The position numbers were made by a program, and so were the translations under genes. Below are positions 14,953 to 19,381 of a stretch of DNA of 28,269 nt, in pieces (the stretch's first letter is position 1; each line of letters begins with the position of its first letter). Source of the stretch: an uncultured archaeon (GTDB lineage Archaea > Asgardarchaeota > Thorarchaeia > Thorarchaeales > Thorarchaeaceae); the NCBI GenBank assembly GCA_964610875.1, contig CAZSWP010000028.1, positions 28,364-56,632 on the forward strand, read 5' to 3'. The notes beneath the pieces are model-generated. The model worked only from the letters and a program-made list of their open reading frames with translations, was not told where the DNA came from and searched no databases.

Positions 14953-14970
14953 GGAAAAGAAAAGAAGGAA
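14953..14970 (-). terminator. Pyrimidine/U-rich tract after the second SECIS-like copy, putative archaeal terminator
   Basis: Minus strand TTCCTTCTTTTCTTTTCC, in the same position as the tract following the first copy; lies between convergent genes. Confidence 0.45.
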
Positions 14971-14973
14971 TAA

Positions 14974-15042
14974 GCGAGCAACTCTTGCAGGGTCGTCCAG
15001 CTCACCCAAATTTCGGTTGAGCGTTCATCCACCACCCAGCAC
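14974..15042 (-). repeat. Second, diverged copy of the vhuU 3' end plus SECIS-like element
   Basis: Aligns to 16237-16306 at 60/70 positions (9 transitions, 1 gap). Minus strand GUGCUGGGUGGUGG-AUGAA-C-GCUCAACC-GAAAUUU-GGGUGAGC-U-GGAC. Confidence 0.9.
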
Positions 15043-15134
15043 TAGGTCACTTCTGGATGTTTCACACATCCCTCAACCAACAACCGATGAATCATTATTT
15101 CTTACAAAGAAATAAACTGGTTGTGAATGGATAA

Positions 15135-15695
15135 TCAATCCCTACTACTTCGTAGATAGCCTTTCTTGAATTCTAACCACACATCAAGAATACCGAGCGA
15201 GTTACATACTTCTTGAATGTATGCTTCATCCAATTCATCTTCATGTCTAGCAAGGATTCCAAGTGCATCCCGCATATCCTGCTCACCTTGAAAGAACAAT
15301 TTGTTGATGAGAGTGTCTTCAGGAGAACCAAGGTTCAGTGTAATCCCCAAATGGTGAACCTTAATTGCTCTCTCAAGAGTCCTCCTATCGAAGTGCGAAT
15401 TCGCATTTTGTAGGTCAAGTCGTAGAAGGCTATCATCCACAAAAACAGTACAGTGACTTCCTTCTTGTAGTAAGTTCTTCATGGTTTTAGGTTCAACATC
15501 AAAATGGTTTTTATGCAGATAAGAAAACAATGCATCAATTTGTGAATCATTCAAATCAAGAATGAAATCAATATCTACAGTTGTACGAGGAACACCGTGA
15601 TACATTACAGCAATCCCTCCTACAATGACATATTTCATATCATTTTCATTGAGATAGCTGCATACGATCCGCAGTGTTTCTTCAATGTCCGTCAT
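15135..15695 (-). CDS. Nucleotidyltransferase (Pol-beta superfamily; AbiEii/MenT1/DUF6036-like), putative toxin
   Basis: IVGGIAV...PRTTVDIDF (GG + RxTxDxD) and SPEDTLINKL....QDMRD. The ATG at 15695 overlaps the upstream small ORF and is preferred over the GTG at 15707. Confidence 0.8.
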   Translation of the reverse strand: MTDIEETLRIVCSYLNENDMKYVIVGGIAVMYHGVPRTTVDIDFILDLNDSQIDALFSYLHKNHFDVEPKTMKNLLQEGSHCTVFVDDSLLRLDLQNANSHFDRRTLERAIKVHHLGITLNLGSPEDTLINKLFFQGEQDMRDALGILARHEDELDEAYIQEVCNSLGILDVWLEFKKGYLRSSRD

Positions 15696-15846
15696 CTTTC
15701 CTTGCACCTGCCGTTTCTAATGCGATCTTGGAGAGCTCTAACCCCATGATCAATGTATCAATTCCGGTGAACCCTCTTGCTCTAATCGCAGTCATAATCT
15801 GCTCCCTATCTCGACGCTTTCGGACTAGCTCTTTCTGAGTTGACAT
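15682..15846 (-). CDS. 54-aa helical protein, putative cognate antitoxin (not in the ORF track)
   Basis: Manual translation MSTQKELVRKRRDREQIMTAIRARGFTGIDTLIMGLELSKIALETAGARKDDGH*. Overlaps the nucleotidyltransferase start by 14 nt; GTGA RBS-like motif upstream. Confidence 0.65.
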   Translation of the reverse strand: MSTQKELVRKRRDREQIMTAIRARGFTGIDTLIMGLELSKIALETAGARKDDGH

Positions 15847-16215
15847 CAAATCACACATTCTAGATGTTACTATTGCTGATATATTCTCCTTTTCAAAAAA
15901 ATTGTTTCTGATGGTGGGAGCGATTCTTTCTGGTGTGTTTTAATCTACTATCAAATTGAGTATGCTCAGAAAAGTATGTCTGTGAGATTAAATAAGATAT
16001 CCAATGAAACTATCGATTTATCGATATAGATTATGGGCCAGCAATTGCAGAAATCGTTGAATGGTGACCAGTTACTCATGTACATCCATAGTCCCAGATT
16101 TCTGAATTTGATAATTAAACCTCATCAATATCCCTTAGTCAAATTCACTCTGTAAAAAAACAACTACAACAGGTATTAAGAATATTCAAGAATATAATCA
16201 AATGAGTACTTTGAT

Positions 16216-16234
16216 AAAAAAAGAAGGAAGGAAA
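16216..16234 (-). terminator. Oligo-U/pyrimidine tract ending the hdr-mvh-vhuU operon
   Basis: Minus strand TTTCCTTCCTTCTTTTTTT immediately after the GC-rich SECIS structure. Confidence 0.6.
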
Positions 16235-16236
16235 GC

Positions 16237-16306
16237 GCGGGCGACCCTTGCGAGGTCGTCTAGCTCAACCCAAGTTTCGGTTAAGCGTTCATCCACCGCC
16301 CAGCAC
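16237..16306 (-). promoter_or_regulatory. Eukaryote-like SECIS element of vhuU
   Basis: Minus strand AUGAA-C-GCUUAACC-GAAACUUG-GGUUGAGC-U-AGAC: UGAN/NGAN core with tandem G.A pairs, an 8-bp upper helix and apical AAA. A lower helix GGGCGG/UCGCCC is possible. Lies about 84 nt downstream of the in-frame UGA. Confidence 0.85.
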
Positions 16307-16438
16307 AAGTTCCTTCGTTGCTATCTCGCGACCCTCATCGTCCACAATCGTTAGATGAGCGCCGCAGGATAGTCAGCAGTCATAGCACCGCACAACCATC
16401 TCGAGGAGGTTGAGCAGTCCTTCGGGTATTTCTTTCAT
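16289..16438 (-). CDS. vhuU: Selenocysteine-containing small subunit of F420-non-reducing [NiFeSe] hydrogenase (VhuU-like), 49 aa, Sec22 (not in the ORF track)
   Basis: MKEIPEGLLNLLEMVVRCYDC-U-LSCGAHLTIVDDEGREIATKELVLGGG*. The in-frame TGA at 16373-16375 occupies the first Cys of the DPCxSCxxH Ni-binding motif. GAGGT RBS at 16448-16452. The upstream MvhA lacks this motif. Confidence 0.93.
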
Positions 16439-16453
16439 TTTGATATTACCTCT

Positions 16454-17773
16454 CTAGTCTACTTTTACCATTGGTTCAGGTAGGGTGAGGGATTCATGGA
16501 CTTTATCCTCAAAGACTTGCTTTGCGGCATCCATGACTGATTTCTCAATACCTGCAATGTTGTTGTTCGTCGCTACAATGAGATTAGCATGAGTCAGAAT
16601 GCCATCCTCATCGCACTCGTAGTTATGAAGGAGGGTTCCACGTGGTGCTTCTACGATACCAACACCTTCACCAGCCTTCGGTTCAACGTCTGCCAGCTTC
16701 ACATCAGTACTAACAATATCTGGATCTTCTAACAATATCTTAATCCATTCTACCGCTTGCACAGTTTCAACTATTCGTGCGTAATGATATGCGAAGGTAT
16801 GATGTGAAGGTCTCCCAACTAATTCGCGCATCTCCTTTAGAGCAGCATCAGCTAATGGGGTAGCCATCTTATCAGCTACGTTACATCTTGCCAATGTGTT
16901 AGCTCGCCAGATACCGTCAGGGTAACCAGCAGGTTTGTAATAGATGTGTGTCGCGTAGGAATGATTGGGTATATGTTCGCCATAGTACTTGGTGTAGTCC
17001 TTTGGCTCAAAGTCAGCAACAATCTTTCCATCAGGGTCCATAACACGGACATTCCCATCATAGATGTCCAGTACACCGTTGTTTGTAAGACCAAGATAGT
17101 ACGTAGGAGTGACTGCCACTTTTGTGACAACGTCAATGTAATCCGTTACTACCTTCTTTGCCAAGTCAACAGTTGCATGAGTCAGATCAAGCAGTTCAGG
17201 CACCTGTTTCAACCATTTGTCTCTGTCCTCTTCAGGAAGAGCATGTAGTTGACCACCAGGAATTGCGGTCACTGGATGAATCGCTTTTGCACCGATGTCA
17301 CGAATTAATTCCTGTCCAAATTGCATCATCTTGATAGCTTGCACAGCAACATCAGGGAGATGCTTCAAGACAGCAGCAACATTTCTCAAAGATGGATCTG
17401 CAAAGGGTCCAAACACAAAGTCAGGAGCAGCTAGTGCATAGAAGTGAATCATGTGTGAGGAGAGTTGCTTCGCCTCTATCATGAGTCTTCTCAATTTCAC
17501 TGCAGCAGGAGGTGGAGTAATGTCCCAAGCATCCTCAACCGCTTTCACTGAAGCAAGATGATGAGGAATAGGACAGATACCACAGATTCGTGGAGCGATG
17601 CGTATAGCTTCCTCCATCGGTCTTCCAACTAGAAATTTCTCAAAGAATCTAGTACTTCCAACGTTGAACTGTACATCTTTGACCTTACCGTCCTTGCCAA
17701 GTTTCACAGTCAGTGCACCATGGCCTTCAAGGCGTGTCACTGGATCAATTCGGATTGTCTTTTCCTCAGTCAT
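16454..17773 (-). CDS. vhuA: F420-non-reducing (group 3c) [NiFe] hydrogenase large subunit, split VhuA form
   Basis: IDPVTRLEGHG, RFFEKF, RICGICPIPH (L1 motif), VEAPRGTLLH, NLIVAT. No C-terminal DPCxxC motif. Confidence 0.93.
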   Translation of the reverse strand: MTEEKTIRIDPVTRLEGHGALTVKLGKDGKVKDVQFNVGSTRFFEKFLVGRPMEEAIRIAPRICGICPIPHHLASVKAVEDAWDITPPPAAVKLRRLMIEAKQLSSHMIHFYALAAPDFVFGPFADPSLRNVAAVLKHLPDVAVQAIKMMQFGQELIRDIGAKAIHPVTAIPGGQLHALPEEDRDKWLKQVPELLDLTHATVDLAKKVVTDYIDVVTKVAVTPTYYLGLTNNGVLDIYDGNVRVMDPDGKIVADFEPKDYTKYYGEHIPNHSYATHIYYKPAGYPDGIWRANTLARCNVADKMATPLADAALKEMRELVGRPSHHTFAYHYARIVETVQAVEWIKILLEDPDIVSTDVKLADVEPKAGEGVGIVEAPRGTLLHNYECDEDGILTHANLIVATNNNIAGIEKSVMDAAKQVFEDKVHESLTLPEPMVKVD

Positions 17774-18699
17774 TTCTTAGCCTCCTTTGCCTCTTCACGC
17801 TTTATCCGTATTCTGCCCAGATGGCTTGTTGGATAGTCAAATCTGTAGAAGAGACCGAGTGGGTCTTTCACTTGGTCTACCAGTTCATCCGGGTCAATGG
17901 GAGCATATGTTCCAAGCATGGACATCGCCGCAGCACCATGGTCTGACATGATTGGTGGGGGTGGACCAAAACATCCACGACAGGTTGCACCTTTATTCAC
18001 ACACTGGCCTTCGCAAAGACCCCATGTAGATGAACCTGCACAATAGTAACCCTGCTCCAATAGACATCGGTCAGGGTCTGCTATCCCCTCATAGGGTCGC
18101 AGCACCCTCTCGATGGGAGTTTCCTTTTTCTCCCTAGCACAATAATGGCATACTGTGTGAGGAGGTAAGTCAAGAGCCTCTCCAGTGAGAAGGGAATTGA
18201 TTGCGGTAGCAATTAGCTTTGACGTTGGAGGACACCCTGGAATGTAAATATCAAAATCAACATAGTCAGAGTTAGGTCTCACAACTTTCTCAAGAGGAGG
18301 AAGATTCTCTGATGGAACCTCACCGCCGCTGAAAGTCTTGTTCTCCCTGAACTTTGTGTCGACAAGTTCTTCATAGTCATAGAAGTTTGCCAGACCCGCA
18401 ACAGAACCAAAACAAGCACAGGAGCCCAATGCAACCAATATCTTGCTTTTCTGTCGAATTAGCTTGAGGAGATGGACATCCTCTTCCGTCCTTGCCATTC
18501 CTTCATAGAAGCCAACCACGATTGATTTGTCTTCATAGGACTCAAGGTCCTCCAGTTTGTAATCTACTACTGCTTGCCAGTATTTGATTTCCAATTTTGG
18601 AAGTATTTCTGCAAGTCCGAGATGAATATCAACGAGACTCTGGAAACAACCCCAACAGGAACTACCTTGACCCATTACAACTGGTACTGGATCGCTCAT
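17770..18699 (-). CDS. mvhG: F420-non-reducing hydrogenase small (Fe-S) subunit MvhG/VhuG
   Basis: SCWGC, EG, ALGSCACFG, IPGCPP, VCHYC, CLLEQGYYCAG, CRGCFGP. Confidence 0.92.
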   Translation of the reverse strand: MSDPVPVVMGQGSSCWGCFQSLVDIHLGLAEILPKLEIKYWQAVVDYKLEDLESYEDKSIVVGFYEGMARTEEDVHLLKLIRQKSKILVALGSCACFGSVAGLANFYDYEELVDTKFRENKTFSGGEVPSENLPPLEKVVRPNSDYVDFDIYIPGCPPTSKLIATAINSLLTGEALDLPPHTVCHYCAREKKETPIERVLRPYEGIADPDRCLLEQGYYCAGSSTWGLCEGQCVNKGATCRGCFGPPPPIMSDHGAAAMSMLGTYAPIDPDELVDQVKDPLGLFYRFDYPTSHLGRIRIKREEAKEAKK

Positions 18700-18938
18700 C
18701 AATGACCACCCTCCTTGAGACTATAACAGAGTTCTTCTTCCTTGTGTCCAGATACCTCAACTTCTGCCCACCTTAGCATGGCCATGATATTCCAAATCAC
18801 TTGTTCTTTCGGAATACCAGTCATCTTAGCTAACATGGAAACAGTCCGGGCTCCATCTTCAAGAACATGTTTGATTTCCTTGCGCTGTCGCAATGTTATT
18901 GACCGTGGTTTTTCAAATAGAGTTGCAAATTGATTCAT
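18699..18938 (-). CDS. Small winged-helix-like protein inside the mvh operon
   Basis: IKHVLEDGARTVSMLAKMTGIPKEQVIWNIMAMLRWAEVEV...LCYSL fits a wHTH pattern. ATGA overlap with mvhD and TGATG overlap with mvhG. Confidence 0.7.
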   Translation of the reverse strand: MNQFATLFEKPRSITLRQRKEIKHVLEDGARTVSMLAKMTGIPKEQVIWNIMAMLRWAEVEVSGHKEEELCYSLKEGGH

Positions 18939-19381
18939 TTCCACTCCTCCGAGATAGGACCAAGTTCTCGTACTTGTTCGACGAGTGTTCGGACACCATC
19001 AGCGAAGATCTGAGCTTCTGATGCGCTTGCCCATTGTAGTCGTATTCTTCGTGGGTCAACTCCAGCCTGCTCAATTGCTTTCGCCATCAATGCCCATCTG
19101 GCTCTCGCTTTCAAGTTGCCACTGGTATAATGGCAATCGCCGGGGTGACATCCAGAAACAAGAACACCATCCGCACCCATCTCCAATGCCGCAAGAATGA
19201 ACTCAGGGTGAATTCGCCCTGTACAGTTCACTCGTAAAATTCTTGCATTGGTGGGGTATTGGATACGACTTGTCCCAGCTAAATCAGCTCCCGCATAGGA
19301 ACACCAATTACAGCAATAAGCAAGTATCCTAGGTTCCCACTCTTCATCATTCTTTGTCTTAGTTTTAGTTGTGGCAGCCAT
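18935..19381 (-). CDS. mvhD: MvhD [2Fe-2S] subunit (Cys form)
   Basis: CCNWCSYAGADLAGTSR, CTGRI, GADGVLVSGCHPGDCHY, WASASE. Confidence 0.96.
   Translation of the reverse strand: MAATTKTKTKNDEEWEPRILAYCCNWCSYAGADLAGTSRIQYPTNARILRVNCTGRIHPEFILAALEMGADGVLVSGCHPGDCHYTSGNLKARARWALMAKAIEQAGVDPRRIRLQWASASEAQIFADGVRTLVEQVRELGPISEEWK

Follow-up and report, generated by a model that had tools for sequence, protein, structure and literature searches.

How can two UGA codons of one short reading frame be given opposite meanings? Distinguishing UGA as selenocysteine (Sec) from UGA as stop is the central problem of selenoprotein synthesis, and the vhuU gene analysed here poses it in a compact form. The gene lies on a 28,269-nt stretch of DNA (the window) from a metagenome-assembled genome of Thorarchaeota (3.75 Mb in 124 contigs, 40.7% GC). 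The genome shares its GTDB family with MAGs named Candidatus Thorarchaeota and is not one of Lokiarchaeota. A sequence-only reading of the window proposed that the vhuU stop codon is at the same time the UGA of a SECIS core, that a ribosome reaching it must melt the SECIS and so terminate, and that this overlap is a Sec/stop discrimination device with a layout intermediate between those of bacteria and eukaryotes. Below we consider the gene, the structure and conservation of the element, its relation to known SECIS elements, and the possible explanations of the overlap.

The vhuU gene and its genomic context

The vhuU frame starts with ATG at 16438-16436 on the minus strand and ends at codon 50, TGA (16291-16289), preceded by Gly-Gly-Gly. 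The encoded peptide contains the motif R-C-Y-D-C-U-L-S-C-G-A-H. It matches the extreme C-termini of MvhA/FrhA chains and the 27-residue solved VhuU chain 9sfi_M. The ORF of about 50 amino acids is situated directly 3' of a motif-less large subunit gene and itself carries D-x-U-x-x-C-x-x-H. Because of these peptide matches and the upstream NiFeSe_Hases large subunit lacking the C-terminal motif, vhuU is identified as encoding the C-terminal piece that was split off the [NiFeSe] hydrogenase large subunit. A Pfam search with the 50-residue VhuU alone gave no family, since the protein is too short. The motif of the nickel site reads R-C-Y-D-C-U (16373-16390, minus strand) against the usual R-A-Y-D-P-C, and its Asp-Cys-Sec triplet shows no variation among ten aligned Asgard vhuU sequences or in a larger set.

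The stop codon of vhuA is UAG and lies 15 nt upstream of vhuU. Further upstream are genes for the small subunit, a small winged-helix-like ORF, a Cys-type MvhD and an HdrA-like protein. An 81-residue ORF at 18699-18944 (minus strand) overlaps mvhD and vhuG and has a weak match, below the cut-off (E 0.0025), to a PF0610-like N-terminal (winged-helix) domain. The mvhD and hdrA-like genes of the window are Cys forms and have no in-frame UGA. The genome encodes the Sec machinery: tRNA-Sec, SepSecS (473 bits), EFSec (276 bits) and a Sec-type SelD, whose gene has an in-frame UGA.

Table 1. Features of the vhuU region and of the downstream repeat (window coordinates)
Feature	Position	Strand	Comment
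vhuA	16454..17773	minus	Pfam NiFeSe_Hases, 99 bits; large subunit without C-terminal Ni-binding motif
vhuU CDS	16289..16438	minus	49 sense codons and stop; translated with TGA as U
vhuU Sec codon UGA	16373..16375	minus	codon 22; aligns with Ni-ligating Cys of DPCxxC
Candidate CDS hairpin from G of Sec codon	16319..16374	minus	22 pairs in the Thorarchaeota consensus; 16/22 here
Lower helix, 5' strand GUGC-U-GGGC	16298..16306	minus	in CDS; labelled Val46, Leu47, Gly48
SECIS core AUGA	16289..16292	minus	vhuU stop at U16291-A16289, preceded by A16292, wobble base of the last Gly codon
SECIS upper helix and apical loop	16263..16286	minus	MFE fold and covariation
SECIS 3' core GA	16259..16260	minus	partner of GA in AUGA; invariant G-A-C columns in alignment A1
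Side hairpin 3, GACCU-CGCAA-GGGUC	16243..16257	minus	between core GA and lower-helix 3' strand
Lower helix, 3' strand GCCC-GCGC	16235..16242	minus	in 3' UTR; fold and covariation
Pyrimidine tract UUCCUUC, then T run	16216..16233	minus	can pair with GAAGGAA, 16316-16310
Orphan vhuU tail and SECIS	14963..15045	minus	alignment; direct repeat 1264 nt downstream

Structure of the SECIS element

The predicted element extends from the coding region into the 3' UTR (Table 1). It was initially delimited as 16237-16306; the true span is wider, approximately 16226-16316. The region 16320-16215 has a minimum free energy of -40.2 kcal/mol (z = -3.2).

The upper helix consists of eight Watson-Crick or GU pairs (16286-16279 with 16270-16263). 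It is capped by an apical loop of 8 nt, GAAACUUG (16278-16271), which reads CGAAACUUGG when the closing C-G pair is opened. At the base of this helix, the window copy has two non-standard pairs, A16288.A16261 and C16287.U16262. All three glycine codons before the stop had been assigned to the 5' strand of the lower helix. This holds for the first of them; the helix takes at most the first G of the second one, and the last two codons (GGU GGA) form a mostly unpaired junction before the UGA. Among the aligned loci, this 5' strand is made up of Val-Leu/Thr-Gly codons and one further G. An outer helix may be formed by GAAGGAA and UUCCUUC (16233-16227). The pyrimidine tract and the following T run are likely the transcript end, with a putative role as terminator. 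In some Thorarchaeota loci, part of the lower helix falls within an alternative local hairpin (GGGUGYG...CRCACYC).

The structure was assessed by covariation. Alignment A1 comprises 30 members of the family and covers the outer helix, a 10-bp lower helix (helix I), an 8-bp upper helix (helix II) and the side hairpin. In A1, 89.5% of cells are paired, compared to 37-48% in slid controls, and there are 82 double-change cells, compared to 12-26. The upper helix has 93% of cells paired and compensatory changes at 7/8 pairs; in the lower helix such changes occur at 5/10 pairs. The outer helix is paired in 87% of cells and shows little covariation. R2, a covariance model built on the three inner helices, gives 73.7 bits at the vhuU site of the window, and matches the Loki-like and Atabeyarchaeia loci over the full length; locus L023, discussed below, is matched as well. 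The cross-class alignment A6 was fitted to R2 and thus leans towards the structure; in it 88% of cells are paired against 32-43% in slid controls, and compensatory changes occur at 19/22 pairs, including 8/8 in the upper and 9/10 in the lower helix. Thus the hairpin is a genuine, conserved Asgard element of the eukaryote-like SECIS kind, as the sequence-only reading had supposed, and its AUGA provides the stop codon of vhuU.

The side hairpin is a recurrent part of the element. In 60 of the 73 loci described in the next section, compared to 4% of shuffled sequences, the core is followed by a YGCHH loop with a closing stem of at least 3 bp. These 60 loci have 22 distinct stems, and most of the remaining loci contain loop-size variants. 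The CC/GG pairs of the stem are near-invariant in A6, and the arm is found in vhuU of Thorarchaeota, Loki-like archaea and Atabeyarchaeia. The covariation pattern identifies the vhuU SECIS as a candidate three-helix junction of the lower helix, the upper helix and the side hairpin.

Conservation of the overlap between the stop codon and the core

A protein search in 41 related genomes gave a vhuU match in 35 of them, and the genes are of Sec type in most of the family. A scan of one genome per species added 70 loci, mostly from Thorarchaeota, but also from Loki-like 'Promethearchaeota' and Atabeyarchaeia, as well as Cys-type genes from Sigyn- and Odinarchaeota. After removal of duplicates, 73 distinct Sec-type vhuU loci remained, belonging to Thorarchaeota, Loki-like archaea and Atabeyarchaeia. 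The orthologues are related, so counts of loci overstate the independence of the observations.

The Sec codon is TGA in all 73 loci, and the core UGA coincides with the vhuU stop codon in 71 of them. The spacing between the two UGAs is an uninterrupted 28 codons, with TGA at +84, in 62 loci; nine more form one clade with a four-codon insert and TGA at +96. A stop codon independent of the core was found in two lineages only. In L023, UAA is the stop at +84, and AUGA follows 18 nt later. In L020 (Loki-like, relative G032), a premature in-frame UAA occurs 13 codons after Sec, whereas the tail codons and the in-frame core UGA at +84 are kept; possible reasons are a nonsense mutation that arose recently, a truncation that is tolerated in a cleaved tail, or a mistake in the assembly. 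The overlap is therefore not obligatory.

Cys-type loci (L041, L104, L106, L111) have TGY at the Sec position. No SECIS element was found at the Cys-type vhuU homologues, and R2 matches none of them.

Constraint on synonymous positions had been suggested as a further sign of conservation, and it was observed at two sites among the 62 loci that have the 84-nt spacing. In 60 of these, A immediately precedes the stop codon, the exceptions being one GUGA and one UUGA, while the last residue varies (Gly in 53, Glu in 8, Gln in 1). Codon 25 ends with C in 57 loci, its residue being Gly in 48 and Ser in 11 of the 62, and GGC accounts for just 13% of glycine codons in this genome. This C pairs in the lower helix; the next glycine codon, which is unpaired, varies freely.

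A candidate hairpin at the Sec codon

The coding region of vhuU contains another candidate structure, which starts at the Sec codon (Table 1). Its positions are paired at 90% in rows of the Thorarchaeota type and at 73% in the window copy. In other classes pairing falls to 36-68%, and in Cys-type genes to 36-59%. Thus the predicted hairpin is specific to Thorarchaeota and absent from Loki-like, Atabeyarchaeia and Cys-type vhuU. Several double changes from C-G to U-A couple a synonymous change of a cysteine codon with a change from Arg to His. The hairpin may be analogous to the eukaryotic SRE. Its bases can alternatively pair with the upstream segment GAUGGUUG.

Comparison with known SECIS elements

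To our knowledge, Asgard archaea are the only prokaryotes with eukaryote-like SECIS elements. The overlap of the vhuU stop codon with the SECIS core is already known: it was published in 2016 for Lokiarchaeota, and the Thorarchaeota locus is a further member of the same group rather than a case of a new principle. According to Mariotti et al. 2016 (Mol Biol Evol, PMC4989117), the overlap in VhuU.1 is extensive enough for AUGA to double as the stop codon. These authors also proposed that structural constraints preclude SECIS function at nearby UGAs, invoking proximity and a minimal distance, and noted in support that HdrA never ends in UGA. Huang, Xiao and Zhang 2024 (ISME J, PMC11227280) reported that UGA stops in Lokiarchaeia often overlap AUGA, and for that reason searched for SECIS elements from 30 nt upstream of the stop codon; SECISearch3 gave no significant results. 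A paper on Atabeyarchaeia mentions VhuU and does not mention the overlap.

The features of the window element agree with the type I (lokiSECIS) model, given in PMC11227280 as a core GA_[G/A]A, a stem of 7-15 bp with at most two mismatches, and a loop of 8-20 nt. As in the model, which rarely has GUGA in place of AUGA and also allows AA as the 3' core, AUGA immediately precedes the upper stem and GA immediately follows it. The stem comprises eight standard and two non-standard basal pairs, and it covaries. The loop has unpaired adenines near its 5' end, and two adenines of the apical loop are invariant in A1. Finally, the gene at whose 3' end the element lies has an in-frame UGA aligned to Cys, and the genome encodes the Sec machinery. 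Judged by these features, it is the known eukaryote-like (kink-turn type) SECIS of Asgard vhuU, here predicted in Thorarchaeota.

Searches against Rfam gave no SECIS family, either at the gathering score for the whole window or at E up to 10 for 16050-16450, and hence the assignment is based on the published Asgard models and on covariation. The sole Rfam match listed, CRISPR-DR, was rejected as a chance match. The side hairpin was also considered as a SECIS of the euryarchaeal GAA_A type and rejected, as its flanks read GAC(A/G).

The window element and lokiSECIS of VhuU.1 share the AUGA core, a nine-position stem and an A-rich loop ending in G, and both are situated at the end of vhuU. The published 11-nt loop, and 3' AA in place of GA, recur in the Loki-like loci L088, L090 and L091. 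The window copy differs in having 3' GA, a shorter loop (8-10 nt, CGAAA type) and the two non-standard basal pairs. The type I elements of frhA and vhuU described by Huang et al. for Thorarchaeia have the same core, ranges of stem and loop length, and lower stem; for Thorarchaeia frhA, PMC11227280 gives G[U/G]AAA-type loops and the lower stem [U/C]GG_C[C/U][A/G]. In the main text of PMC4989117 we found no mention of a lower helix within the coding region, and in that of PMC11227280 no mention of the fixed 84-nt spacing. Both main texts contain no mention of the side hairpin that we could find.

Like eukaryotic SECIS elements, which are kink turns bound by SBP2 in the 3' UTR, the vhuU element has an AUGA...GA quartet and unpaired loop adenines, would act at a distance, and is separated from the recoded UGA by a minimal interval. 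Work of Martin and co-workers from 1996 reportedly set this minimal UGA-to-SECIS distance at 51-111 nt. The differences from the eukaryotic elements are a shorter upper helix in the window, the hairpin inserted on the 3' side, the 18 nt within the coding region, and the lack of an Rfam match. We know of no SBP2 in Asgard archaea.

Bacterial SECIS elements are bound by SelB and lie directly after the Sec UGA. The likeness is that the signal is partly coding, and Thorarchaeota have in addition the separate conserved hairpin starting at the Sec codon. However, the AUGA/GA element is 84 nt away and has no SelB-type apical G/U motif. An intermediate position between the bacterial and eukaryotic layouts is thus not borne out: the distance from the Sec codon to the core is that of a UTR-type element, and only the 5' 18 nt of the SECIS are coding. 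The euryarchaeal SECIS (Methanococcus; GAA_A bulge, three G-C pairs, 3' UTR) serves an orthologous vhuU and is likewise near the stop codon; by contrast, the Asgard element has no GAA_A internal loop, and the CC/GG stem of its side hairpin is not flanked by GAA_A. A SECIS placed directly after the coding region still functioned in M. maripaludis (PMC9622424).

The presence of the third helix invites a comparison with the k-junction. Wang and co-workers are said to have described it (NAR, 2014) as a kink turn whose non-bulged strand carries a third helix. Hairpin 3 is similarly positioned, on the GA strand between an NC-like upper and a C-like lower helix. The sequence allows G.A/A.G pairs and the third helix covaries, but the 5' junction strand, of about 6 nt, is longer than the classical 3-nt bulge, and the likeness is one of secondary structure. 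With this qualification, the vhuU SECIS with its side hairpin resembles a k-junction-like three-way element.

Other elements in the same genome

The second vhuU gene (L033, L112) is situated at 8210-8393 of contig C28, 36 kb from the window copy on the same contig. Its stop codon overlaps the core in the same way. Its SECIS is consensus-like, with a fully covaried upper helix, and scores 59.4 bits with the vhuU-based model R1. Compared to it, the SECIS of the window looks slightly degraded.

A further copy of the vhuU tail and SECIS is found without a gene of its own downstream of vhuU (Table 1). This orphan scores 41 bits with R1 and 55.6 bits with R2, and one U is deleted in its upper helix. 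The direct repeat formed by the two copies encloses a gene for a DUF6036/AbiEii-like nucleotidyltransferase and a 58-residue ORF (15135-15858). The arrangement looks like a small cassette inserted into the 3' end of vhuU with target duplication. Among sequencing runs, none of RNA was listed as containing the locus. In two DNA runs of one microbial-mat study, fewer than half of the sampled words matched, and the short contigs, at about 4x, gave no joint.

A strict pattern scan of the genome detected only the two vhuU elements, and the scan with R1 these two and the orphan copy. As R1 is derived from vhuU and detected vhuU-type elements exclusively, no inference about other selenoprotein families is drawn from it. 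A looser scan anchored on the side hairpin added one convincing match, selD. Its final codons, CGA-UGA, provide the AUGA of a SECIS (L121:2519-2522; contig C1, position 103666). This candidate SECIS is of type II, with an AAAAA bulge and a CCG/CGG ministem, and is followed by a side hairpin, GCUGC-CGCAA-GCAGC, at L121:2547-2561.

One may go further and suggest that the SECIS elements of Asgard vhuU and of selD in this genome form a k-junction-like three-way element, whose third arm would be an unrecognised determinant, for example docking a SECIS-binding factor. The hairpin at the Sec codon in Thorarchaeota would then be SRE-like, and the first UGA would be marked by two signals, the second by none once the ribosome has unfolded the SECIS. 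This suggestion is tentative, and we consider it somewhat improbable as a whole.

Proposed meanings of the two UGA codons

The best overall explanation, which we consider quite probable, is that the Asgard SECIS recodes codon 22 and is unfolded when the ribosome reaches codon 50, whereas the overlap itself stems from the end of the tail being set by the protein. We infer recoding, the immunity of the second UGA through unfolding, and cleavage of the tail.

The geometry follows from the established ribosome footprint. With UGA-22 in the A site, the whole SECIS would be folded, its first helix 59-69 nt downstream, and could deliver EFSec with Sec-tRNA to the ribosome. Once UGA-50 occupies the A site, the ribosome would already have unwound the lower helix, and its mRNA channel would contain the core together with the 5' strand of the upper helix. 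At codon 50 there would then be no SECIS, and aRF1 would terminate. As to the origin of the overlap, the SECIS would abut the end of a 21-residue tail, where AUGA happens to be in frame. The proposal that melting of the SECIS enforces termination is plausible on this account; the same model was proposed by Mariotti et al. 2016.

The stop codons of vhuA bear on this point. Among 67 loci, vhuA ends with UAG in 39, UAA in 26 and UGA in 2, although UGA is the commonest stop codon genome-wide (36% of long ORFs). The naive binomial probability of this deficit, 6e-11, is overstated because the loci are related. The vhuA stop is about 165 nt upstream of the SECIS core on the same strand. Avoidance of UGA in vhuA combined with a near-obligatory UGA inside the SECIS is what the model of position-dependent immunity predicts. 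The contrast fits a SECIS that recodes in-frame UGAs sufficiently far upstream, and not the one inside itself. It provides a new gene pair that parallels the published argument from HdrA and VhuD. The two vhuA genes that end with UGA are those of L002 (relative G016) and L032 (relative G001). In L002 this UGA and vhuU share one frame, so that a ribosome reading through it would make a full-length large subunit from VhuA joined to VhuU; in L032 the two genes are put out of frame by a 1-nt difference.

An alternative is that the SECIS is real, but its overlap with the stop codon is a neutral by-product with no selected role in Sec/stop discrimination. A hydrogenase maturation protease would remove the tail, a tail of ancestral length would simply run into AUGA as its first in-frame stop, and inheritance and genome compaction would preserve the layout. 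The 21-residue tail after His28 is similar in length and sequence to that of Cys-type FrhA (3zfs: VVDDE...EMV), and in the solved VhuU chain a single residue follows the conserved histidine; hence the position of the stop is largely set by the protein, and the tail following His28 is probably cleaved off. Processing of VhuU is reported for M. voltae. The tolerance of a premature UAA in L020 with the core kept at +84, and the combination of UAA with a downstream SECIS in L023, point in the same direction, and since all loci descend from a single common ancestor, conservation could be inertia.

However, the overlap persists in Thorarchaeota, Loki-like and Atabeyarchaeia lineages despite complete turnover of the helix sequences, and A is retained before UGA where the amino acid changes. 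The selD gene of the same genome has the same overlap. Moreover, vhuA strongly avoids UGA, and therefore read-through in the vhu operon is evidently selected against. On balance, a purely neutral overlap seems unlikely. Nevertheless, part of the same evidence weighs against selection of the overlap for discriminating Sec from stop: the stop position is largely set by the protein, the overlap has been lost in L020 and L023, and, if the tail is cleaved, the accuracy of termination may be of little consequence. The unfolding of the SECIS at codon 50 remains the preferred explanation of how the second UGA acts as a stop.

Another possibility is that the second UGA, too, is decoded as Sec at an appreciable rate, yielding an extended VhuU precursor. 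A further in-frame UGA does occur eight codons on, and an extension may be harmless if the tail is cleaved; nothing positive was found in favour of this possibility. On the other hand, conservation of the protein ends at codon 49, the later frame is not conserved, and the distance to the next stop after UGA-50 ranges from 8 to more than 25 codons. By the footprint, the core and the 5' strand of the upper helix would also be inside the ribosome at UGA-50. We regard such double decoding as very improbable.

That the element is not a SECIS at all, but a hairpin forming or stabilising the 3' end or an attachment site of the duplicating cassette, would agree with the T-rich tract 3' of it, the lack of a SECIS match in Rfam and its duplication as a direct repeat around the 1.26-kb nucleotidyltransferase cassette, yet is hardly credible. 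The stems covary around an unchanging AUGA, GA and A-rich loop, the element follows Sec-type vhuU only and never Cys-type vhuU, it fits the published Asgard type I model, and the same core is present after the Sec-type selD. Any use of the element for integration would come second to its role as a SECIS.

Implications

Two UGAs of opposite meaning within 84 nt make vhuU a compact natural test of the minimal-distance rule. To what was published, the present analysis makes a modest addition: the occurrence of the overlap and of the 84-nt spacing across several Asgard classes, the avoidance of UGA at the end of vhuA, the conserved third hairpin of the predicted SECIS, and the candidate hairpin at the Sec codon of Thorarchaeota. 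These features could guide the search for the missing SECIS-binding protein of Asgard archaea.
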